Both the position numbers and the translations under genes were made by a program. A DNA stretch of 63,976 bases, the filler included, from Thelocarpon superellum (taxonomy: Eukaryota): assembly GCA_026025795.1 (NCBI GenBank). It is 2 parts of 2 records of this genome, joined end to end, with 100 filler letters (N's around TTAATTAATTAA, not from the genome) between each part and the next. Parts side by side here need not be neighbours in the genome. Positions count along the whole stretch, not along the records: positions 1 to 31,970 come from JAPEUG010000186.1; 1 more part is not named here. One strand, 5' to 3'. The notes beneath the pieces were generated by a model that searched no databases, had not been told where the DNA came from, and saw nothing but the letters and a program-made list of their open reading frames with translations. Of this stretch, positions 888 through 17,679 are shown in pieces (position 1 is the first letter of the stretch; each line of letters begins with the position of its first letter).

Positions 888-2218
888 TCACATCAATAAC
901 GCCACACACGACAGAAGCAGACCAAGGCAAGACAGGCCCTTGGCATGTATTCTCCCTCCCGCATTGGTCGTCTCAACGGCAACGTTGGCACCAGAGGTTG
1001 GTGTCGGGATCAGAGTCATCACTGTGCTGGAGAGTGATGGCAGGGTGCCGCCAGAATTGGCAGCGGCCGTGGCACTCTGGGCGGCAGATGCCGGCACCGT
1101 AATCGTTTGCCCCGACGTACAAGAGGAGCTGGATGTCGGCACCATGACCGTCTGCGGCGATGGACAAGGCGAGGACGATGCCGGCACCGTGACCGTCTGC
1201 GGCGATGGACAAGGCGAGGACGATGCCGGCACCGTGACCGTCTGCGGCGATGTGCAAGGTGTGGTGGGTGTCGGCACCGGTATCATCTGCGGCGATGTAC
1301 AGGCTGAGCCAGGAGAAGCACCACCTTGCGCGTTACTCATGAATGTATCCATCTGTTCTCCTGGATTGATTGCAAAAACCATCCCCGCACGGCAGTGCGA
1401 CTGCGTCACCGTCTGCGCGCAAAAGAACCACTGTGGATCGCTGCTGTCGACGCGATAGGTGACCATGAACATGTTGTTGAGGCTTTGTGGATTGTAATGG
1501 TGGAAGTCGGTGTTGAATCCACCACTGCCGACACAGGGATTGCTGAATGATGACTGCGTCAAAGTGTCATTGGTACCAAGGAAGTTGAAGATGACGACGT
1601 CGCCGACGGCGGCATTGAGCTGGTTGGGCTGGAAGGTAGGCTGACCCGCAGCCCCCACGTCGACACGATGCGTGGTTGGTGCAATCACTGCCGCCGCACT
1701 CGCCGGCGGAGTCGAGGGCAGACTGGCGGGTGATGGTTCGAGGGGAGGGGCCTCCGGGGCTACGCTCGCAGTGCTGGACGCCACCGTGGTGCTGGATGCG
1801 ACGGATGAAGTCGAGCCGGGAGCTGTGGCAGAGATGGAGATGGGTACTCCGATCTTGGCACATGTGTCGCTGACTGTCTGTGCGATGGCTATACAAGAGT
1901 TTAGCAGGGCTGGCACGGCGAGAAGCGCCTACCTTACCTTTCTGATCCGATGGCGAACACGCCTTCTCGACGCAGCTCGTGACCTGAGTCTGCAGGCTGG
2001 TCTTGCTGCAATGGCATTTGAAGTCGGTCAGACCCGCGCAGCCGTCACCCGTCAGAGCGGTAGTAAAGCAAGAAATCTAGGACTTCGGGTCAGTCACAGT
2101 CCCACCCATGCCTCTTGAGTCTTACTCCACATGACGGGATATTCGGAAGTCCCTGGGCAGCGATGGTTGACAGCAGCAGAGGGACGACAGCGAGGACGTG
2201 GACTACGGTCAGAATCAT
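888..2218 (-). CDS. Secreted, probably GPI-anchored CFEM-cupredoxin fusion protein (3 exons: 2218-2126, 2076-1938, 1888-888)
   Basis: Signal peptide MILTVVHVLAVVPLLLSTIAAQ. Splicing two 49-nt GT-AG introns (2125-2077, 1937-1889) gives an 8-Cys CFEM domain (PSCG-ISCFTTALTGDGCAGLTDFKCHCSKTSLQTQVTSCVEKACSPSDQK-AIAQTVSDTC). This is followed by a S/T/P linker, a fungal cupredoxin-like domain (TFQPNQLNAAVGDVVIFNF...QWFFCAQ...HCRAGMVFAINP), Cys-containing repeats and a hydrophobic C-terminal tail. Confidence 0.85.
1087..1302 (-). repeat. Intragenic 45-bp tandem repeat, ~5 units (encodes C-[PT]-S-P-Q-T-V-T-V-P-A-S-S-S-P)
   Basis: Unit gatgccggcaccgtgaccgtctgcggcgatggacaaggcgaggac recurs near-identically, with degenerate outer copies. 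Confidence 0.9.
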
Positions 2219-3060
2219 CTTGAGAAGTGGAGAGAGGGTCACGTCCGGGTGGAATTGCCAAGTGACGGCCTCAAAACAATGGAGGACGTGGGCAAAGAAT
2301 CCCACGAGATGTGGGGACTAGAGCACAAGCAGGGATTGCACTTCGAGTTGAGCAGATCATCTGGGTCCCGCGTCTACCTCCACGCCGGCTTCTCCTCTCC
2401 ACGGCATTACAGTAGTCTGACAACATCAGACCCATGAACCGGTCCAAAACCACGGGGGCGAGACCTTCCGCTCGCCGAGGCCCGCCCTGTTGCTTGAGGT
2501 CGTCAGGGATCCTTCGATTCTAGAAGACTTCTAGAACGGTTTGCGAAGGCGGTGGATCAAAGTAAATTCAATGGTGGCCCAGCGATCGCTTGTCGCAATG
2601 CGAATCTCGGAATGACGCCGTGCTTCAAACCTAATCTCAAACACAGCTGGACCCTGTCCGGCGGAGCGGGGTCTGCCGGCCGTTGCGAAATCGGACGCCC
2701 TGAATCGCTGTCATGGCGGATATGTATGACAATCTCGGCAACTGTGGATGGGGCGCATGATGTTCGCCGATCTTGCAGATGCCTTCTCCCCCGTTCCGCT
2801 GCAACGTTGCAGGGCTGGATGGAATATGATCGGGCCCGCGCCAAACCTCCCGCCTAACCTCCCGCCTCACCGACTGTCAAGTTGAGCATGGTCACGTTTC
2901 AGCCATGTCATGTGATCCGGACGTTCTCAGCAGCCTGTCGGAAGATGACATAACCAGCAGCTGGTCATGGAAGGCGGAACGGGAAATGCCGCTTTGTTGG
3001 TTCCCATATAATTGGTATGGGGAGACCCAAGCAGAGTTTTATCAGCCAGCTGTAGGAGCG

Positions 3061-3415: not shown

Positions 3416-4521
3416 TCAGTTGCCCAACAGCTTTCCAATTGTTGCAGTGACGTTGAGCTCGATGTGCTGCGCGGTCGCGGCCAAGGACTTTTCGAAATAG
3501 GGAAGGTGTTGGCCGTGGAACGTGACGCTTTTCCCCACGGCATCGATGGGAAGGACGCCGGAAGGGAAGTCCGCCGTCTTCTCAAGCACCAGACTCTGGT
3601 TGACGGTCGCCCGCATCTCCACCGTGTTATTGCCAGGCATTATGGTCAGGTTTTCGATGGTCGAGGTGCCGATGAGGTCCTTCTCCACGAACAGGTCCAT
3701 CGTCAGGTTGCCCTTAGACCGGTCAGCAACTTCCGCTATTTCCGGTTCTGATGACCTACCAGCTGCACCGTCATCGGCGACGGGTTGGGCACATAGACGA
3801 TGCCGAGCATGTTGGCGCCATCGGATGCTGGCGAAAGGAGAATCTGGGTCTGCGTGACGTTGAAGCCGCGGAGATTATTGAGACCTTTCAAACTGAGGAC
3901 GTGGTTGAAATTGACGTAGGTCGCGGGGAAGCCTCCCAGGTGGAGAAGGGGCCGGCCGCTGATGCCGAGCGTATAGGTATCGTTCTTGAAGGCGATGGCG
4001 CTGTAGCGCGCGAATTGATCCATGTCGGCAATCTGGATGGTCTGGACGAGCGAAACCGACAAGCCATCCCGGGCCACCATCCCGGGCACCTGCACATATG
4101 CAAAGGGTATGATGTTGGGCTCCAAGTCTGGGAGGAACAAGGACGCATTAAAGCCGTCCAGGGAGGCTTGGAAGGGGCTGTCGCTGTGAAGGATCTGATG
4201 TTGGTAGAGGTCGAACGAGGTGGGCGTTGGATTCGTCAACGCCATCGCCGTCACCTCGATTGTGGCACTGTCGACGCCCGCTTGAGCCAGATGTGGAAAG
4301 AAGACATCGAGGCTGCTTCGTGGTCAGAATAGCAGGCTCATCATGCCGGCGCCGCTCTGGCTCATCACTCACACCAATAAGATAAAGGTAACCAGCCCCA
4401 CGACCGCACCAACCAGGTGGAAATACCAGAAACGCCGATAATGCTCCTTGATCTTCTGCGCCCTGCGGGGTGGCAGCTTGATGCTGCTGTGCACGAGGCT
4501 GCTATGGATCTCGCTGGACAT
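3416..4521 (-). CDS. DUF3712 (Tag1-like) single-pass membrane protein, 3 exons
   Basis: ATG at 4521 gives MSSEIH...KEHYRRFWYFHLVGAVVGLVTFILL (type II TM). After an intron the sequence reads FFPHLAQAGVDSATIEVTAMALTNPTPTSF...PFAYVQVP...LKGLNNLRGFNV...NPSPMTVQL, then after a second intron GNLTMDL...IMPGNN. These motifs are typical of fungal DUF3712 proteins. Confidence 0.8.
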
Positions 4522-5867: not shown

Positions 5868-6493
5868 ATGGCCCCATCTCGACTTCTCTTCTTGGCGGCG
5901 TTGTTTTCCTTCACTTCGATTGTTGCCGCGCAAGGAATCCCCAATATTCCATCGTGTGGTCTTCCCTGCTTCACCCAGGCCCTGACCAGCGATGGCTGCG
6001 CTGGCTTGACCGATTTCAAGTGTCATTGTGGCAAAACGCAGCTCACGACTCAAGTGACGACTTGTGTCCAGAAAGATTGCCCCAATGTGTCCGATCAACA
6101 AGGTAGGTGGACCTCCCGGCAGCACTCTCTATGGCGTGCTGACTCTCCGTTCCAGCCATCGCCAAGACCGTCTCCGATACCTGTGCTCAGGCCGGGGTCC
6201 CCATCAGCATACCCTCACTTGGACCCACCTCTGCCTCTTCTTCCTCTTCTTCCTCTGCTCCAGCTGCCGCGGCAACCTCGTCGACCCCAGCTCCAGCTGC
6301 GCTTACGACTCCGACTTCGGCGATAACTGTACCCCCGGCTCCGGCCTCTGTCGCCACTCCGGCTCCAGCCAATGACTCGGGTGAGGACAATGGATGCGAG
6401 GTTACATATGTTACAGCGCCTGTGCCGGCTGGCCCACCGACCACTCTCAAGAAGAAGCGGGGCCCTGCTCCTGCTCCTACTCCCTCATCGTGA
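5868..6493 (+). CDS. Secreted CFEM protein, paralogue of the 888-2218 gene (exons 5868-6102, 6156-6493)
   Basis: Signal peptide plus QGIPNIPSCGLPCFTQALTSDGCAGLTDFKCHCGKTQLTTQVTTCVQKDCPNVSDQQ. Phase-1 intron gtaggt...ctgac...cag at 6103-6155, then AIAKTVSDTCAQAGVPISI and a S/A/P/T-rich tail ending KKKRGPAPAPTPSS*. No hydrophobic GPI signal. Confidence 0.85.
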
Positions 6494-6949
6494 TCAATCT
6501 CGTGCACATGGAGTGTTACTTGGCCATGATTGGACGAGGCTGGCCTGTCGATGATCCACGCTGGGGCGCTGAGGGGGCGCTGGCATGAGCGTAGCTGGTC
6601 AGGTTTGACAGAGGCTAGGGTGTATGTGTCAGATGTGAAGTTGAGCTTTTCCTTGAGAGATTAAGCCTCTTCTTGCAACGGATAGTAAGAATTTCCAACT
6701 TTACCTTCAAACAGATGATTGGTTCGCGTTTCAATCAGACTACCTTGGTCGGTCAAGTGATGACGGTGACGGCGAAAGAAGACCGAAGCAAAATCCAGGC
6801 TCCAGCCTCAAATGGTGGTCCGACATTCGGGACTGTAGGACTTTGGCGCGTGGTGTGGAGAGTCTTCCTAATCACGTGAACTAGGTCACGTGGAGACATT
6901 TCCGGATTAGTCAGACTATGACCGCGTACCTTCAGAAAAGTTCCAGCGA

Positions 6950-9937
6950 ATGGTAGCTCAAGTCATTCAACCTCCTCTTGTCAGCATGGACGACGGGGCA
7001 GGTCCCGGAGATCGAAAGCGGGAGAGGAGTCAGGACAATAGGGGCAAGTCTCGGCCTCATCGTTCGAAGAAGCTTCGACGGGTTGGAGACGAAGAAGACT
7101 TCGAGGCAAGATGGGGGGACGAAGACGTGGTCGACGAAGGGGACGAGGAAGGGGAAGAGGAATTCCAGCAATCCCCGGCAAAGCGCGTTCGCTTGCAGGA
7201 TCCTCGAGAGGAGGAGGAGGAGGAGGAGGGGCTGGATGAAGAGACCAAGGCTGAGCGCCTACGGGAGCGCGACCTCAGAGAGCGGGATGATTTCGCGCGA
7301 CGGCTACGGGACAAGGATGAGGAGAAGACCAAAAAGATCGTCGAGGACCGGTCTTCCACCAAAGAGGGGCAGCAGACGGCCCAACGACGGGCTCTCGCAG
7401 GCGATGCCGCCAAGCGTGACGCCGCCATACCCGACCTCCGACTTCTCTCGCGGCAAGACTACCTGAAGAAACGCGAGGAGATTCAACTGGCCCTGCTCCG
7501 CAAGCAAGTGGCCGAGGAGACGGAGGAGCTGCGCACCGCCCCCGAGACCTTGTCCCGGCACGAACGAGAAGACTTTGCCAAGAATCGGGAGGTCTTGCGC
7601 CTGGCCGAGGAACGACTCCGCATCGACGACCATCGCGATGGCTACATGTTACCGGAAGACTACATCACGGAGAAGGGAAAGATCGATCGGAAACGAAAGG
7701 AGGAAGCCTTGTACAAACGATACGTCGACCGGGACGAACATGGCCAGGAGCGCTTCGTCACCGAGCAGGAGGAATGGGAGCGGGAGCAGACGACCAAGGC
7801 CAAGGCGCAGATCGCCCAGAGCGAGCGGGTCGACGAGGGGGACTATGAATATGTCTTTGATGATGCGCAGAAGATCAACTTCATCATCGACGCCCGGATG
7901 GAGGCCGATGGGAAGACGATGACCAAAGAGCAGCGGCAGCTCCAAGACCAGCTCCGGGCGGCCGAACAGAAGGCGGCGTCGATCGACGAGACGAGGAAGA
8001 GCCTTCCCATCTACACCTACCGCGACGATCTCCTGGCGGCGGTGGCGGAGTACCAGGTCTTGATCATCGTGGGCGAGACGGGGAGTGGGAAGACGACGCA
8101 GATCCCGCAATACCTGCATGAAGCCGGCTACACCAAGGACGGGCTGAAGGTGGGATGTACGCAGCCGCGGCGCGTGGCAGCCATGAGCGTGGCGGCGCGT
8201 GTGGCGGACGAGATGGGAGTCAAGGTTGGGAACGAGGTCGGATACGCCATCCGCTTCGAGGATGCGACGAGCGACAAGACCATCTTGAAGTACATGACCG
8301 ACGGCATGTTGTTGCGCGAGTTCTTGACCGAGCCCGATTTGGGCGGCTATTCGGCCTTGATGATCGACGAGGCGCACGAGCGCACCCTGCACACCGACAT
8401 TTTGTTTGGCTTGGTCAAGGATATCGCGCGCTTTCGACCGGAGCTCAAGCTACTCATCTCCTCGGCCACCATGGACGCGCAAAAGTTCGCCAAGTACTTT
8501 GACGACGCGCCCATCTTCAACATCCCGGGTCGACGATATCCCGTGGATATCCACTACACGCCACAGCCCGAGGCCAACTACCTCGCGGCGGCCGTGACGA
8601 CCATCTTCCAGATCCACATCACCCAGGGCCGGGGTGACATCTTGGTCTTTTTGACCGGCCAAGAAGAGATTGAGGCCGCGGAACAGAATCTGCAGGAGAC
8701 GGCGCGCAAGCTGGGGAGCAAGATCCCCGAGATGGTCATCTGTCCGATCTACGCCAACCTGCCATCGGAGCTCCAGAGCAAGATCTTCGAGCCGACGCCG
8801 CCCAAGGCGCGCAAGGTGGTGCTAGCGACGAACATTGCCGAGACGAGCCTGACGATCGACGGGATCGTGTACGTGATCGACCCGGGCTTCGTCAAGGAGA
8901 ACGTGTATAACCCGCGCACGGGCATGGAGAGTCTGGTGGTGACGCCGTGCTCTCGGGCCTCAGCCAACCAACGCAGCGGACGGGCGGGACGCGTGGGCCC
9001 TGGCAAGTGTTTCCGACTATACACGAAGTGGGCCTTTTACAACGAACTGGACGAGAACACGACGCCCGAGATCCAACGCACGAATCTGAACAGCGTGGTT
9101 CTCCTGCTCAAGAGCCTCGGAATCAACGACCTGATCGAGTTCGACTTCATGGACCCGCCCCCCGCGGAGACGCTCATTCGGGCCCTGGAGCAACTCTACG
9201 CGCTCGGGGCGCTCAACGACCGCGGCGAGCTCACGAAGGTGGGGCGCCAAATGGCGGAATTCCCGACGGACCCGATGCTCGCCAAGTCGATCCTCGCAGC
9301 GGACAAGCACGGCTGCGTCGAGGAGGTGCTCTCCATCATCGCGATGCTCGGCGAGGCCTCCGCGCTGTTCTACCGGCCCAAGGACAAGAAGATCCACGCC
9401 GACTCGGCCCGCGCGCGCTTCACCATCAAGGAGGGCGGCGACCACTTCACCTACCTCAACATCTGGAACCAGTGGGTCGACAGCGACTTCTCGTATGTCT
9501 GGGCGCGCGAGAACTTCCTCCAGCAGCGCAGTCTGACGCGGGCGCGCGACGTGCGCGACCAGCTGGCCAAGCTGTGCGACCGGGTGGAAGTCAGCATCGC
9601 CACGGCTGGCGCCAACAACCTCGTGCCGATCCAGAAGGCCCTGACCGCCGGCTTCTTCCCCAATGCCGCCCGTCTCCAGCGCGGCGGCGACGCCTATCGC
9701 ACCGTCAAGACGGGCATGTCCGTCCATCTGCACCCCAGCTCCACCCTCTTCGACGCCCCGCCCAAGTGGGTCCTCTTCTACGAGCTCGTCTTGACCAGCA
9801 GAGAGTACATGCGCTCCAACATGCCCATCAAGCCCGAGTGGCTCGTCGAGTCCGCCCCGCACTATCACAAGACCAAGGATCTGGACACGCTGGGGACTGA
9901 TACCAAGAAGATGCCCAAGGCAGTCGGGAAGGCGTAG
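6950..9937 (+). CDS. PRP2: Pre-mRNA splicing DEAH-box RNA helicase (Prp2 / S. pombe Cdc28 / DHX16 family)
   Basis: [42 protein letters not shown] and an HA2/OB C-terminus. The N-terminal region ([19 protein letters not shown]) is characteristic of DHX16. Exact start uncertain. Confidence 0.93.
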
Positions 9938-10060: not shown

Positions 10061-13000
10061 TTACTCCTCAGCCAGGGCACCGGCATACTTCAGTAACCCG
10101 CCAGTCCAGACGCCCGTTTCCACCCCTTGCGCCTTCAATTGCGCCACGCGATCCAAGTCCACGAGCGCAAATGCTCCAACTGCATCACGCACCAGCTTCT
10201 GGTGCGCGCGACTCTCGAGGATGTCGACGTCGATGGTCTTGAGCGAGACGAAGCGGTAGATGTGCACCATTTTCTTTTGGCCGTAGCGTCGCGCGCGCCC
10301 GATGGCTTGCGTTGTCGACGAGTCCCACGCGTATTGGCTGGTGGTGAGGAAGGGCGAGAGGAAGATGATGTGGTTCGCGTTGGTCAGGTTGGCGCCGCTG
10401 GCGGATTCCGTGCCAACGTTCAACACGAGCACCTTCTTCTTCGAAGAACCCGTCTCTTGCTGAAACTGGCTCATCATGCTCGACGAGGGTTTGTGCGTGT
10501 GATTCGTCAATGCGAGGTTGCTGATCCCGTTGTCCGTGAGTGCTTCCGCTACCTTCTCCATCAGGTCGTCGTATTGTACAAAGAGAAGGACTTGGTCGTC
10601 GGCCGGGATCTCGTCCTTGATCAGATGCACCATCTCCTCTAGCTTGCGTCCGTAGTGACGGCCCTCGCGGTCGTCCGCGTCCTCTTCCCCCAGTTCCGCG
10701 GCGCCGACGACGTGGAAGCCCCGTGCCGCCGCGCTGCAGCCCGTCACGCCGCATTCTTCGTGACGCTGCGGATCGTCGAGACAGGGCTGACACGCCGTAT
10801 GGCCACAGAGGGTGAGGACCCAGAGGTCCGATGGGCTGACCTTGGCCTTGCCGCAAGCTGAGCATTCAAACTGAGCGCTGGCTTGCCCGCCGCGGCTCAG
10901 GCCAGAGTAGGCGCGTTGGAGCGCACGGACGACCTGGAAGAACCGGAGCGATCGTCGACGGGAAACGAATTCGACCGAGAGTCGGCGCAGTTGGCCTGCC
11001 AGCTCTCGCAATGCTTGCACTTTCTGCGCCGTCGTGGTCAAGCGCATCGACTTGCTGCTCTTGATCCGCATCCTTTCCGTCATCCCCGATTCCTCGGCGT
11101 CGATTGCGTTGTCTTCTGCCTCGCTGTCCAGATCACGGTCATCGTCGCACTCCTCGTCATCGGCAGTGTCGTCCGCGTCTCCCTTCCGCTTCCGACTCGT
11201 GAATGGTCGTCGCGTCGCCTTCCCCTTGCCCTTGATATTTCTACTGCTCCGCTTTCCCGCCTTCTTCTGACCCTGCGCCGCTTTCTTCTTCCGCGCGCCC
11301 AGCTTCTTCTGAAGTTCTCGGACGTCCGTGTCGGTGTAGAACTCGTTCCCGTCCTTGGCGCTGCTGGCCTTCTCGGCCGCCGCAACGTATGCTTGAAGGG
11401 CGCGCTCGGACGGAGCGTCGCCAAACGCCCCACTCGCCACGTTTTTCTTCCAGCCTTCAAAATGCTTGTCGTCAGACTTGCATTGTCGTTTGAGCCACGC
11501 CGCGTGTCGGAGGTGCATTTGGAGGTCCGCCTCGACTTCCGCCAGCTGACGCTCTCGCTCCACCACGACGAGGTCGCAGGCTTGAGTTGCGTTCTCGCGT
11601 CCATCCTCAAGCTCGTGCAGGGTAAAGTGAGAGCTCGCCTTTAGGAGGGCCTCTTCCGCCGTCTTGCTGGACCCCAGCGTCTCCGTCAGGCGCTTGACGC
11701 GATCATTCTCCGCCCGCGATTTACCTTGTCGGATCCTCATGTCTTGCGACATCAGATGGCAATGAAGCTCGAGATAGATGGCACGCTCTGCCGCCGGGAG
11801 CGTGACAGGTCGGAGGATTTCGCAAAAGGGAATCTCGTCAATCTCGGCAATGTTCTGCCGCACGAAGCGATCGAGGAACATCTGCGCCACCTCGTGTCGT
11901 CGTTCATGCCAGGCCGGTGACCGGACCTGCTTGAAGGCCTGGAATTTCTCCACGTCCGTTCGCTCGCTCTGAATCGCCCGGATCGTCTTCTCCTTCATGA
12001 AGCCTGCGCTGTCATCCTGGATCCCAAGGTGGATCCCCAGGAAGACCGAAATCGACTTGATGTCAGCGAATTCCTCCAGCGGCGGGGTTCCAGACAAGAC
12101 CCATCGGCATGTCGCGGCAAGGTTAACCAGACAGGTGTGATCCTTGCCCGCCACATACGTGTACTCGTCAACTACCACGCGGTTGAAGTGAAACATCTGG
12201 AAGAGCGGACACTTCATCTCGACCCAGTTTTGCTTGGCCGCCGGGGTCTGGAGCTTGAATGGATCTGGGTCGGTTTGGACGACCGGGGTAGCCGGCGAGT
12301 CCGACAAGTCCGACAAGTCCGACAGATTTCGCTTGTGACGCCCTTTCTTCGGCGAAGCCTTGCCCGTCGCCCCAGCGGCTTTGGCCTTTTGGTACGCCTG
12401 TCCTCGGAGACGTTTCGACGGCACCGTCGGTCGAAGCTTCTCCTCCCGTTCCGTGGCCGTCATCGCCGCACGCAGGTGTTGCCGAAAGGCCGTCGCCCCC
12501 TTGGTCCGCAGAAGCGGCACGTGTTCCGACACCCGCGCTAGGGCTTGCGCATACCATGCGTCAAACGCCCGGCCCGAAGTCGACGGCATATCGGGAAGCG
12601 CGGCGAATTGGGCCAGTTTGGCGAGATAGGTGACGTTGTTGAAGATGGGCCACGTTGTGATAATGATGTGCGCCTGTTGGAAGTCTCGCACGCTGAGGCG
12701 CGCCAGGTCTTTTTGGATCTTGATAATCAGCACGCGGTAAGTCGAGCCCAGAAACTTCTTGACTTCGTTGGCCCACTGGTCCACCAAGGTGGCGGGCACG
12801 ATGATGAGTGTGGCTCGAATCCAGATCTTTCCGTCAATCTCCTCAAGGGGCTTGTCCCGTTCCTCTTGAAACCGGAGGTCGATGAGGCCCAGCGTCGTTG
12901 CCGTCTTGCCGTAGCCGACTTGATCGGCCAGTACCCCGCCGCGGACCGTTATAGCCGTGGTAGCCCGCGCCTCAGCCCGCCATCCCAGTTGCGGCTGCAA

Positions 13001-16000
13001 GGCCTCCTCGACCTCTTCTTCGAGGAATGGGGCGACCTCGTCGGCTTCCTGACGGCGCATCCAATGGACCGACCGGAGTTGCTCTGGACGAAGAGGGGTC
13101 CGAAAGTGAGGGGGTTGGGTGGACGGAGGGTCGGATTTGTTGCTCCGCAAGGTGAGAGGTGGGAAGGTGACCTGGGGCGGCGCGACGTAGTTGGTCAACA
13201 AACGCCAGGCCACCGTCATGTCCGAAGCCTGCGGCGCGCCAGGAAGACGGGCCATCGCCCGATGGACCAGGGACCACACGTTGAGCCCGACGCGCAGCAT
13301 CCCGACGTCCTTCTCGTCGATGCGAACTTGGGTGAGAAAGGGCGACGGACGATTCTTCAGCGCGTGCTCATAGGGCGCAGCTTGTTGTGGGTCTTCATAC
13401 GGCCGCCATTTGTTCTTGGAATACTCCCACTTGACGCCCGGAGCCGGGGGCGCACACGCCGCGCATGCTCCAGCATCCTCGCCCAGCGTCAAGGCGTTCC
13501 ACGTCGCGAGTCCCTGGATACGGCGCACTCGTTCGGTCAGCCACGCAAAGGAGGTGAAGACCCCACTCTCATTCGGTTTGTCCACCTCGACCCAGTCACC
13601 GCGACCCCATCCGATATGTTCTTCGCATGGAAGCTGGACCCGGCACGAGAGGATCGTGTTGGCAATGTTGCAGGACGGTTCGACGAAAGCCGCTGGCAAC
13701 GGGTGGGGCGGGACCGCAAAAGACGCATCTTGGCCGCGACGGACGGGCACCAACGACGTCGATGGACTTGAGATCCAGCGTCCTTCTACGACGCAGGGGA
13801 CCTTTTCGGGCTCGAACCGGTGCGACGGCCGCCACGTTGCATCGACCGTGGCGACGACCTGACGGATTTCCCCATAGGTGAGACGGCGGATGTCGGTAGA
13901 GAAGACGAATGGGTCTCGGGCCGGATCGCCCAGCCTGGTCGGGTCGAGGAAGAGAAACATGGGCGCCGTCTCTGCGGCCGATATCTGGTGAGAGATGCGC
14001 TTCTTGTGCAGACTGCCAGAGGCTGTCGCGCAGTCTTGGAGCAGGTCATAATCGCCCTCGATTGCCATATCCAGGAGCTCCCGGGCACTGGGGTCGACCG
14101 CGACGTGGAGTGACGACCACACCTGCTTGTCGGCGAAGCGGGACTCGGTGAGTCCCAGCTTGGACTCCCACGAGCGGAGCAGCGTCCCCTGTCCGGTGAC
14201 CGTGATGGTGAAGCGGTTCGCGAGGGGAAGACAAAACTGCCAGGTGCCCGACAACAGGCTGACACGCGTGGGCCGCATCCGCGCAAACGGTCGCGCCAGC
14301 AGTCGCCGCACCGGGTCGTTCCCAGGTAGTCCAGCTTCGGGCTTGCCGAAGACGCGCCACTCGGCCTGACGGCCGTCCAAGATGAGCTCCATGCGTGCGG
14401 TGGGCGCATCGTAGGTGACGGTCCAAGTCTGTGCCCGCTTCAGCGAATGAAAGCGCAATTCCACTCCCAAGGCCGGTGCGATCGAAGACGCGAGCCGATC
14501 CCACTCGGCGTCATCTACCGAGATCTTCGACGTGGTCTGGAGCGTCTGGAGTCCTTCGAGGGTGAGCCCTTCGACAGCAATGCGCATGGGCAGCGCGTTC
14601 TTCAGCTGATCCTCAAAGTTGGCTGGAGGTAAGCGCGCCTGGAGCTCCGGCCGTGCGATGACCTCGTACCGATGCGAAGGGTTCCCACCACACTGCTCGC
14701 AAGTCGTATGGTGACACAAGACGCATCGCCGAAGCTTGTTGCTCGTCATGAGCGCTCGTCCTTCGCAGAGACAAAGACGTGCGCTCCGGACAGCGTCATG
14801 TAGGATGCGCGGGACCGGAATGGGCGCGACGTTGCCAAGGTCAAGGGGTGCCAGGACGAGCGCGTCATCGCCTCGCAGATGGTGCTGCACATCGACTGCG
14901 TCGACGGGCATCGGATCGCCGTCCGCTTGAGGGATGGCACGATGGCCAACGATCAGGGCCGCCAGGATAGCCGCGCCCACCACGGTCGATGTCATTGCGT
15001 TTCCCGCGAGGTCTTGCAGATTCTTTTGACTCTCGCGCGTCAGGAGCAGTTTCTCGATCGGGAGTCCCTGCATTGCAAGGGCTTCGAGACCGATCATCGG
15101 GCCGCCGCGGTTGGTGACAAAAGGGTATCCCGTCGGCGTGATGCAGGCCGTGATGCCGAAAGGCGTGGTGTCAGTGAATCGGTCGATGTTCTGCGATAGC
15201 TCCCACACCCGCGTCTTGTACTGCGAATCGAACCCACGCCGAACGTTGCGTAGGAAGGAGATCTCAAACGTGTCCCAGATGCGCTCGACCTGCTGCACGC
15301 CCCAGTCACCCCAGGCATAATCGGGCATGCGACACGACCCGTTATCCTCCCATCCGGTCAGGGGTCGCTTGGCTCCGAGGAAGAGGTCTGCCCGGTAGTC
15401 CTGATGACGGCCTTGGCACTTGGTCCAATCCACATCGCGCGGTCCGTCGTCATCACCGCGACGCATGCCCCGAGCCAACTCGGCGCGCCCGCGGTGCACG
15501 CGCGGATCGTCTTCGTGAAGTAAGAAGGCCTCGATGGAACTGCTGGCGGGTCGGCTCAAGGTCGACATGAGATGTTCCCAGCGTTCCACCACTGACTCAT
15601 GGGCGAGCTTCTTTCGGTCGACACAGATCATATAGCCACGCTGACGGGTGTGGGGGATGTAGTACTGCTTGGTGTCGAGCCGCACGTGCCGAGAATTGTA
15701 TCCGATTTCTCCCCACAGGATCTGGATGTCTTCCCATGGCGCGCTACACACGTTCTCCAACACGATCAGCGGCGGACGCCAGGCACGAGCGTACTGATAG
15801 ACGGCCTGGAACGTATCGCCAGACTCGCCTCCGGCACTGAGCGTTTGACGTTTTGTGTTCAGATTAGAAAAGTCAACGCAGGAGAAGCCGGCAACGAGGA
15901 GGTCAACATCCGCCGGGATCTCTGCTCTCGCTCCGTATGCCGTTGTCGCCGTGGTCGAATCCACCAACTCGCGAATGTCCCGAAAGATGATGGGCGGACT

Positions 16001-17679
16001 GAAGTTGCGTTCGATGTAGGCCTGCTTGTATGGCACAATCTCGGCACTGAACTGGTGCTCGAAGTCCAACGTGCGACCCTCGAGCTTGTTAAGACCTGTA
16101 TCCAGTCAGCAGCGAGCGTGAGGATGCAGAGGAATGACGCACTCTCGTTGACGAGCTGCAACGCCAGGATCGGACTCTCCGTCCCGGAACACATGGTCGC
16201 GACCTTGAGCTTGTTGCTTCGCAAATGCTCCACGGCCTTCATCAACCCCTGTTCTCGAGCCGCCCGCGTGAGATCCTCAAAGATCTCGCCGATGTCGTGC
16301 ATCGGAGGCAGCTCCTCTCGGATACCTGCCTTGTACGTCCACGTATCCGTGTTGCGCGAATCTTGCGCGCGCTTCGTCGGCCGCTTCTTCGCGGACGTCG
16401 AATTGGCGGCCGAGGCAGCGCCGAGAGCCCCCATGGACGAGATTGTCGCTTGCACCTTAACGCGCTTCCGCGGAGGAGGGGCGGCCTCCGCCTCTTCGCT
16501 GCGCTCTATGTCCTCCTCTGATTCCATGTGGTCGAGGGAGCGCTCTGACGGACTTGACGGGCTTAGGTTTCCCGGTTCCACGTCGGATGAGGTCTGGCTG
16601 GAAGCTTCCTCTGCTTCAGAGGCACGGAAATCCTCGGTATCTGAGCTCGACGAAGTGTACTCGTCGTCACTGCAAGCGCTTGGTGAGCAGGTGAGATGCA
16701 GACACACAGAGAGAGCCGGGGGGGAGGGGGAAAGAGTTGACGGATTTTCAGCGTGTACAAGGGAAACAGGATGGTCAAGAGTTCATGAGGATCAGACAGG
16801 GGACCTTCGAGTTGTTGGACAGCACAGGTCAGGACAGTAGGAAGTGAAGAACATGGGAACTCGGGATAGCAATTTCAAGGATGGTTAGGTATTCACCCAC
16901 CTCGAAGATATAGAGCTCGCGCCTGCGCGGACTTGGATGTCGCCATCCAGTGAATGAACGGCTCGCGCGGGCCTCTGTCTTAGGCTCCGCGCGCCTTGGC
17001 TTTGCGTCGAAACGCGCCGCACTCCAACAAAGAACGACTCGATTGGCTTTTGAGTCCCCGTCATAGCCTTCTGATTCACTAGGCGTGGACGTGCAACCAA
17101 GTTGGAGGTCTCGGGTGTCTTGGGCGTCTTGGGTGTCTTCTTGGCTTGCGGGACTGGACACAAGTCCTGTCAGCATGGGACGTGTTGATGGTTCAAGGGA
17201 ATTCGTGAGAAGCCACGTCATGTAGGACTCAATACAGTCGAAGTAGGACACAAGGGTAGGACAACCTAATCACGAATTTGTGCATGAACCATCCCCGCCA
17301 TTTTAAAGCAGCAATACCGAGGTCTTTGATGTTGGCTGGGCATCTCATGCGCGCACAGAACAGTGGGGCATATATGTCACTCACCCTCAACCTTGGCGAG
17401 CCACATGCGACCCTTGGGCCGATGCCTGTTTGGATTGACCACATCTGACTTGCATGGCTCCCGAGATTCCGCTTTTGAAGAGCGGCGAATGGGTGAGATG
17501 TGTAGTGCAGTCATTTTCCCCTTCGCCATGGAGTGTCTCATCGGTCGCGGCTGTTGCGCAGCTTTCTTTGACCGGCCACGAGTCTGTGAGACAACCTCAC
17601 TATCAGTGTCATTGTCGTTGGATAGTCGGCTTTCAGGGTATCGGATGGCGGCCTTGGTTGTCCTTCGGAGAGGTGCCAT
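10061..17679 (-). CDS. DNMT5: DNMT5-type C5 cytosine DNA methyltransferase fused to a SNF2 ATPase with RING finger
   Basis: MTase motifs: I LKVATMCSGTESP, IV DLLVAGFSCVDFS, VI IVLENV, VIII PHTRQRGY, X DLAGNAMTSTVV. SNF2 motifs: GGVLADQVGYGKT, VVVDEYTY, WVLSGTP, QAIGRARRYGQ. RING: CSAC...CGHTACQPC...CGVTGC. The intron at 16142-16096 joins the 15859-16707 ORF to the 2002-aa ORF. The 5' exons (16673 up to a putative ATG at 17679) are uncertain. Confidence 0.9.

Follow-up and report, generated by a model that had tools for sequence, protein, structure and literature searches.

A CFEM head joined to a cupredoxin-like domain in a probable cell-surface protein of a Thelocarpon-like ascomycete

The gene described here lies at positions 888 to 2,218, on the minus strand, of a stretch of DNA from Thelocarpon superellum (GenBank assembly GCA_026025795.1) that is 63,976 nucleotides (nt) long with filler included and is called the window below; the gene is in the part drawn from JAPEUG010000186.1. 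As far as DNA can show, we have here a single, real gene from a Thelocarpon-like ascomycete, and its product is probably a chimeric cell-surface protein, anchored through glycosylphosphatidylinositol (GPI) and heavily O-glycosylated, with secretion and anchoring both predicted. The protein joins a CFEM head to a cupredoxin-like domain, which seems, from the sequences searched, to be a new combination of two known families, rare and seen so far in one lineage. The reading we prefer, and hold with about even confidence, is that of a chimeric anchored surface glycoprotein, formed by gene joining, whose modules would bind their ligands independently. An initial annotation of the same DNA, which proposed a surface protein that couples heme capture to a metal or redox site, is partly supported, and coupling of the CFEM and cupredoxin domains in this protein is pure speculation.

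All of the elements that had been proposed for the protein were found: signal peptide, CFEM domain, linker, cupredoxin-like domain, Cys repeats and hydrophobic tail, encoded by three exons (Table 1). The claim that this architecture is seen only after splicing holds for the complete CFEM domain and for attachment of the signal peptide, but not for the CFEM tail, linker and cupredoxin domain, which lie in one open frame. Because one open exon, within this single open reading frame (ORF; 888..1928), encodes the eighth CFEM Cys, the linker and the cupredoxin domain without a break, the fusion is independent of splicing. Between residues 1 and 217 the spliced protein has no Met, which leaves the cupredoxin domain without a start codon or signal peptide that would let it be made or secreted by itself. 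A mistaken merger of two neighbouring genes was considered and ruled out, since the stretch from the eighth CFEM Cys to the cupredoxin domain contains no stop, Met or hydrophobic segment. Skipping of exon 2 would break the frame, given the exon phases, retention of intron 1 would lead to a stop at codon 43, and retention of intron 2 would cause a frameshift and a stop at codon 201. The N-terminus is hydrophobic (Kyte-Doolittle hydropathy 2.72 over 10 aa) and aligns with the signal peptides of a nearby paralogue and of two stand-alone CFEM relatives, P0165 (Rhizodiscina lignyota) and P0166 (a JGI sample), which are 64-68% identical to exon 2. The spliced N-terminus is collinear with both relatives, with no gap at either junction, and both introns are 49 nt long, with GTAAG donors and YAG acceptors. 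Codon-usage log-odds support the frame modelled here in the first two exons as well as in the cupredoxin domain and tail.

To place the cupredoxin-like region, residues 145-265 were compared by phmmer with 1.84 billion representatives, giving 2188 relatives at E ≤ 1e-3, 97 of them at E ≤ 1e-30, and the best 149 (from the top 150 of the 2188) were inspected. The check for a joint CFEM and cupredoxin Pfam architecture that had been suggested found CFEM, at E ≤ 1e-3, in none of these 149, and local phmmer and Cys-pattern searches found no CFEM in them either; 40 of the 149 have long N-terminal extensions, with at most 7 Cys. Word-indexed protein searches, which are insensitive, returned 11, 3 and 2 matches and no protein with both domains, PF05730 being absent from the 11 matches of one such search. 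At 80 metagenome loci, with at least 500 nt of upstream sequence in 56 and at least 1000 nt in 35, no CFEM was found in six frames with a local CFEM hidden Markov model (best E 0.43), and a Pfam scan of 178 distinct upstream plus-strand ORFs with at least four Cys, which would miss exons with fewer than four Cys each, also gave no CFEM. Literature searches combining CFEM with cupredoxin, extracellular serine-rich protein, or plastocyanin, phytocyanin or blue copper turned up no description of such a fusion, and in the passages seen of papers that mention both CFEM and cupredoxin, the terms denote different proteins. The earlier remark, that such a fusion is not known to have been characterised, thus stands for the relatives, metagenome loci and literature searched, in which no second example was found. 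The claim of rarity is limited by gene models that may conceal CFEM heads, as does P0004, the sole public protein of this locus (99% identical, labelled a partial protein of a Thelocarpon superellum metagenome-assembled genome, MAG); P0004 has no Pfam label and is apparently mis-built, so that the fusion is invisible to database architecture searches. The cupredoxin-like domain occurs elsewhere with other N-terminal partners, namely a phosphatidylethanolamine-binding (PBP) domain at two metagenome loci (L040:1880-3151 and L057:1880-3181), Cupin_1 in P0096, and T5orf172/MUG113 in P0064 and P0133, and many of its relatives carry 2-6 tandem copies; judged by these arrangements, it is a shuffling-prone module.

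Exon 2 alone matches the CFEM profile PF05730 with an E-value of 4.9e-11 and 42.9 bits (cut-off 22), over profile positions 11-54 of 66. The eight Cys, at positions 30, 34, 44, 52, 54, 66, 71 and 87, fit what we take to be the canonical CFEM spacing, and the conserved Pro is present in P-x-C at 28-30. Eight Cys, a Pro and an Asp are given as CFEM hallmarks in the sections seen of a 2026 review (PMC13586796). The motif C44-x4-D49-x2-C52-x-C54 is precisely the one first reported, and the assignment of its Asp to the heme-ligand position agrees with an alignment, at a weak E-value of 0.023, of Asp49 with the axial ligand Asp of Csa2 (PDB 4y7s, W-D-T-G-C-L-C). In excerpts of three sources, the conserved CFEM Asp is described as the axial ferric-heme ligand of Candida hemophores (PMC13586796, PMC7175094, bioRxiv 10.64898/2026.05.08.723727), and an excerpt of a fourth reports it in 7 of 9 V. 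dahliae CFEM proteins (PMC8867779). Because this Asp belongs to the general CFEM consensus, Asp49 is not specific to hemophores. The second heme contact of Csa2 is Tyr36, on an extended N-terminal loop (PMC13586796, in part), and no counterpart of this arm was found here in residues 22-29, the only eight residues, none of them aromatic, between the predicted cleavage site and the first Cys. From the sequence, absence of a Tyr-bearing arm weakens the case for heme capture by the CFEM head. When exon 2 was compared by phmmer with PDB sequences, there was no match.

The second domain has single-domain relatives that are 50-58% identical to it over query residues 2-121. An AlphaFold2 (AF2) model built from an alignment of 88 sequences had a mean predicted local distance difference test score (pLDDT) of 91.1 and a predicted template modelling score (pTM) of 0.85. 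With this model, Foldseek matched pseudoazurin at E 1.6e-5 and returned 63 matches at E ≤ 1e-3, of which the 49 inspected among the best 50 were all cupredoxins or cupredoxin-fold proteins, and VIA-align superposed it on plastocyanin 1bxu with Z 11.5 and a root-mean-square deviation (rmsd) of 2.3 Å over 89 of 91 residues. By these model comparisons, the domain has a genuine cupredoxin fold. Some of its relatives match PF02298, PF00127 or PF13473, and a look-alike search of the ESM Atlas gave cupredoxin-type clusters only, with scores below 0.8. The family is an Ascomycota/Basidiomycota group that is auto-named 'extracellular serine-rich protein' or 'phytocyanin domain-containing protein' in the ESM Atlas, and no curated model of it was found. 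Of the 32 columns with conservation of 80% or more, 30 are kept in this protein, and its two departures equal the family median of 2; conservation is therefore normal, and the domain is not decaying.

The two domains are separated by a linker whose composition is 79% S/T/P/A, and the cupredoxin domain is followed by a stalk. Tandem Repeats Finder (TRF) detected a repeat at 1087..1301, with a period of 45 nt, 4.8 copies and 82% matches, which places five Cys at 15-aa spacing, and an S/T-rich stretch lies between these repeats and N386-A-G. Only 1 of the 149 inspected cupredoxin relatives has a stalk with at least four Cys. The C-terminal 16 aa, which come after N-A-G, are hydrophobic (hydropathy 2.54 over 14 aa), as is the C-terminus of 86 of the 149 relatives.

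The type-1 copper-ligand columns are nearly invariant in 237 related domains (His 235, Cys 229, His 228 and Met 235), and at the C-terminal ligand columns of a further 95 distinct metagenome domains, Cys, His and Met were each found in 92. An extra Cys pair, conserved in 236 of the 237 at each position, is kept here as Cys196-Cys243. The metal or redox site that had been proposed is not canonical, since the N-terminal ligand His is replaced by Asp185, with Cys234, His242 and Met247 retained, and the full His, Cys, His, Met set of type-1 blue copper proteins is absent. The Asp185 column holds His in all 95 of the metagenome domains, and none of 332 relatives has Asp there. Pseudoazurin can be aligned with the N-terminal strands (E 0.004), and Asp185 presumably corresponds to its ligand His40, by spacing from the aligned G-D-x-V-x-F strand and with the numbering as we assume it. 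An Asp at the His-ligand position is possibly still compatible with copper on chemical grounds; a His46Asp azurin was reportedly used as a copper electron-transfer protein, to judge from the title of a 1998 paper by Regan and colleagues that is cited in PMC6004490. Residues N184-D185-T186 are also the sole N-x-T sequon in the protein (1563..1571, minus strand), and the N-H-T ligand motif of the family is likewise a sequon.

Loss of the key His ligand is what would be expected if the protein were a structural or adhesive wall glycoprotein that arose by lineage-specific domain shuffling and has no metal chemistry, with a copper-free cupredoxin scaffold and a CFEM head serving wall integrity rather than heme. 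The promiscuity of the cupredoxin-like domain, with its PBP, Cupin_1 and T5orf172 fusions and tandem copies, is in line with such an origin, and the five unpaired stalk Cys could cross-link the wall. Wall-integrity roles are reported for GPI-type CFEM proteins of S. cerevisiae and A. fumigatus in the review sections seen (PMC13586796), and plant phytocyanins are classed by their copper-ligand residues, with ENODL as one of four classes (PMC10048054, in part). By this analogy, a copper-free wall protein like the plant ENODL phytocyanins is a serious rival. However, the protein retains three of its four copper-ligand residues, 30 of the 32 conserved columns and Asp49, and the CFEM head has been under purifying selection (ratio of nonsynonymous to synonymous differences, pN/pS, about 0.22), and we consider the wall-glycoprotein explanation unlikely, though worth serious attention, beside that of two independent ligand binders.

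The two domains might instead be coupled in cis, Asp49 capturing ferric heme and the adjacent copper centre altering the redox state of the iron to load or release it. Such a protein would build in the partnership known from Candida, which is a real precedent for the logic of the idea. Ligation by the Asp is specific for ferric heme, and the reductase-like Frp1/Frp2 are proposed to free heme from CFEM hemophores through a heme reductase activity (bioRxiv 10.64898/2026.05.08.723727, in part); the alignment of Asp49 with the Csa2 ligand, the good conservation of the cupredoxin domain with its Cys, His and Met, and the position of the domains about 53 residues apart on a single chain would all suit this mechanism. 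However, its copper site would be without the invariant His, and its CFEM domain is without the Tyr-bearing N-terminal arm described for Csa2 (PMC13586796, in part). A lone type-1 copper centre would also lack any apparent donor or acceptor of electrons at the cell surface, and the fusion is absent from the other genomes examined, although a useful device would be expected to spread or persist. In addition, the potentials of blue copper centres are normally far higher than would be expected of a heme with a carboxylate ligand, which weighs further against coupling. Taken together, we regard coupling in cis as improbable, and we find it hard to credit a self-contained heme device, in which a copper centre retuned by the His-to-Asp change would, by electron transfer inside a single polypeptide, set the oxidation state of iron and so gate heme capture or hand-off. 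In Candida, separate proteins, the CFEM hemophores and the reductase-like Frp1/Frp2, are credited with this task.

Formation of the gene by joining, as our preferred reading of a chimeric surface glycoprotein would have it, is suggested by a stand-alone CFEM paralogue located 3.6 kb away, head-to-head with the fusion gene. Its alignment covers residues 8-148 of the fused protein, ending where the cupredoxin domain starts; it has no intron 1, being contiguous there, and its intron is equivalent to intron 2 in position and phase. In the CFEM core, 58 of 76 residues (76%) are identical between the two, and the 76 codons comprise 20 that are identical, 38 with synonymous and 18 with non-synonymous differences, with nucleotide differences of 19/10/45 by codon position. 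These values give a pN of 0.18 and a pS of 0.82, which is saturated. The pattern indicates that the duplication is old and that both CFEM copies have been under purifying selection in the spliced frame, and the paralogue likely represents the source lineage of the CFEM head. The nearest CFEM relatives, P0165 and P0166, consist of CFEM and stalk with no cupredoxin, and the nearest cupredoxin relatives are single-domain proteins with S/T stalks. We therefore propose only conditionally that a locally duplicated CFEM gene, with signal peptide, head and S/T/P stalk, was fused, near residue 148/149, with the body of another gene, which would have been a fungal 'extracellular serine-rich protein' that contributed its plastocyanin-fold domain, stalk and GPI signal and lost its own signal peptide. 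The model of the paralogue has no hydrophobic tail, and there is a possible extra intron near 6381..6416.

In the reading of a chimeric glycoprotein with independent modules, both would be displayed on one stalk; the CFEM head would offer Asp49 as a platform for ferric heme or iron, as in Candida and Verticillium relatives, and the cupredoxin module, if it bound copper at all, would do so at a perturbed Asp/Cys/His/Met site. A number of points weigh against this. For this protein and its close relatives alike, binding of heme or copper is presumptive, and so, for this protein, is the independent action of its modules; the signal peptide and GPI calls come from hydropathy heuristics and motif inspection. 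Exon 3 matches no Pfam family, even at E ≤ 10. What has been published on the fungal cupredoxin-domain proteins FoCup and MoPtep1 concerns their phenotypes, and a statement that MoPtep1 binds copper appears only second-hand in the portion of PMC12753967 seen. Codon 185 (GAC) is one base from a His codon and comes from a single assembly, a contig from another study ending at 1580, 12 nt short of it. Splicing of both introns is deduced from homology rather than from RNA reads, and P0004 departs from our model by a different 5' exon and by a further intron of 50 nt (1336..1287), which shifts the frame of the repeats and C-terminus. In the repeat region, the log-odds per codon are 0.287 for the P0004 frame and -0.233 for ours, and the G+C content at third codon positions (GC3) is 0.79 and 0.65, respectively; differences among the repeat copies by codon position (11/5/10) lean towards our frame, but not significantly.

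Carried further, these points would make the gene an artefact or a dead gene, that is, a wrongly spliced model, an unexpressed young chimera or pseudogene, or the product of a faulty metagenome-derived contig or base calls. Splicing rests on comparison rather than RNA, the sole public model differs and is partial, the P0004 match is labelled as MAG-derived, and Asp185 is unique among 333 domains. Against such an explanation stand the 410 open codons with canonical splice sites, purifying selection on the CFEM head, normal conservation of the cupredoxin domain, and the weakness of P0004 itself, in which the signal peptide, half of the CFEM domain and a conserved terminal helix are lost. The P0004 intron at 1336..1287 was rejected, as it cuts this terminal helix, F-x-x-N-A, and drops the hydrophobic tail; Ala264 in the helix is conserved in 164 of 237 related domains. 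Compared in this way, P0004 is the weaker and a mis-built gene model. The off-frame codon bias recurs in the linker, where the flanking domains fix the frame, so that the codon statistic, biased by S/T/P-rich composition, decides for neither frame in the repeats. The C-terminus in the form modelled here, which we hold to be very likely, is the least secure part of the gene.

Additional evidence on the reliability of the DNA comes from four moss-metagenome runs of one other study, which gave seven short contigs of low depth that match the window at 98% identity or more; that study therefore sampled this organism, or a strain very close to it, independently. One of these contigs, 196 nt long, spans the boundary between linker and domain at 1580..1775 with one mismatch, and this separate contig over the fusion point argues against an assembly join. 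The contigs show no splice joints and leave codon 185 uncovered. A base error at codon 185 is conceivable, because the difference from His is a single base and the independent contig stops short of the codon. Considering all of this, we judge an artefact or dead gene to be quite improbable, and continue with a real gene for a chimeric surface glycoprotein.

Table 1. Features of the fusion gene and its surroundings, with positions counted along the window.
Feature	Position	Strand	Details
Whole gene	888..2218	-	Three exons, 410 codons + TGA; spliced coding sequence 1233 nt, sole stop terminal
Exon 1	2218..2126	-	31 aa
Intron 1	2077..2125	-	49 nt, GTAAGA..TAG, CTGAC branch site, phase 0
Exon 2	2076..1938	-	
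Intron 2	1889..1937	-	49 nt, GTAAGG..TAG, phase 1
Exon 3	1888..888	-	Terminates with TGA
Predicted signal peptide, residues 1-21	2156..2218	-	Hydropathy; putative cleavage after I-A-A
CFEM domain, residues 27-95	1836..2140	-	Eight Cys, both introns inside; PF05730 match on exon 2
Asp49 codon GAC	2023..2025	-	Motif C-x4-D-x2-C-x-C
S/T/P/A-rich linker, residues 96-148	1677..1835	-	No Met
Cupredoxin-like domain, residues 149-264	1329..1676	-	phmmer relatives, AF2, Foldseek, VIA-align
Asp185 codon GAC	1566..1568	-	At family His column; His in 330/332 related domains
C-terminal ligand loop	1380..1421	-	Cys234 - x7 - His242 - x4 - Met247
Five 15-aa repeats, residues 274-348	1077..1301	-	Cys-headed; TRF
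Candidate GPI-type signal	891..965	-	Omega site N386-A-G, 6-aa spacer, hydrophobic tail 395-410
Moss-metagenome contig coverage	722..896, 1255..1481, 1580..1775, 2128..2400		At least 98% identical to window
Stand-alone CFEM paralogue, 190 aa	5868..6493	+	Exons 5868..6102 + 6156..6493, intron 6103..6155; Pfam CFEM E 3.4e-15

Other genes were seen in the same part of the window. The two CFEM genes flank a gene for a DUF3712 protein (3736..4323, minus strand; E 3.1e-28), and the paralogue is followed by a gene for a DEAH-box helicase with HA2 and OB_NTP_bind (6911..9937, plus strand). Beyond it, at 10061..16105 on the minus strand, is a 2014-aa open frame with a C5 DNA methylase domain, an SNF2 ATPase, a RING finger and Helicase_C, a layout that we take to be that of a DNMT5-type maintenance methyltransferase.

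CFEM proteins and fungal cupredoxin-domain proteins are abundant and poorly understood, and published work on the latter consists mainly of virulence phenotypes. A natural chimera of the two is a testable hint that both families act in the same place, perhaps on related ligands (iron or heme, and copper), and, with Asp in place of His, it also serves as a natural experiment on the ligands that the fungal cupredoxin family uses. Since the public model is mis-built and unlabelled and Pfam misses most cupredoxin-like members, such fusions will be under-reported when architectures are counted in databases. If the protein were a plain wall glycoprotein, it would represent ordinary domain shuffling in a single lichen-type lineage.

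The fusion protein can be compared with several known systems. With GPI-type or secreted CFEM proteins such as P0165 and the paralogue, it has in common a signal peptide, an eight-Cys CFEM domain with the Asp, and an S/T/P stalk; P0165-type proteins end after the stalk, whereas the fusion goes on to a cupredoxin domain, to repeats with Cys and to a GPI-like tail. The CFEM classes set out in the 2026 review are secreted, GPI-anchored and Pth11-like, with no fusion type of this kind among them, and the word copper is absent from its text (PMC13586796). The hemophores Csa2, Rbt5 and Pga7 (PDB 4y7s) belong to the same CFEM family, and Asp49 matches Asp80 of Csa2 (PMC13586796, in part). However, the crystallised chain of Csa2 has about 28 residues before its first Cys (position 29; alignment from 24), in contrast to the eight non-aromatic residues here.

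On the cupredoxin side, plastocyanin and pseudoazurin (PF00127) share the fold at only 16-22% identity, and the fusion protein differs from them in its longer Cys-His loop (x7), an additional disulfide pair and the Asp at the ligand His position. The A-G-M-V end of the Cys..His-x4-Met loop is like that of plastocyanin. Plastocyanin and pseudoazurin are soluble electron carriers, whereas the fusion protein is predicted to be extracellular, on the fungal wall. Plant phytocyanins (stellacyanin, uclacyanin, ENODL), as chimeric arabinogalactan proteins, combine a cupredoxin domain with a signal peptide, a Pro/Ser/Thr region that is glycosylated and a GPI signal, and their subclasses differ in the copper ligands kept (PMC3184959 and PMC10048054, in the parts seen). 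The predicted make-up of the fusion protein is similar, but this is an analogy of layout with a shared fold only, and the plant proteins have no CFEM head. In the fungal 'extracellular serine-rich protein' family, both the conserved columns and the layout of predicted signal peptide, stalk and hydrophobic tail are shared with the fusion protein, which stands apart from that family in that a CFEM head replaces the signal peptide, Asp replaces the ligand His, and the stalk carries Cys repeats.

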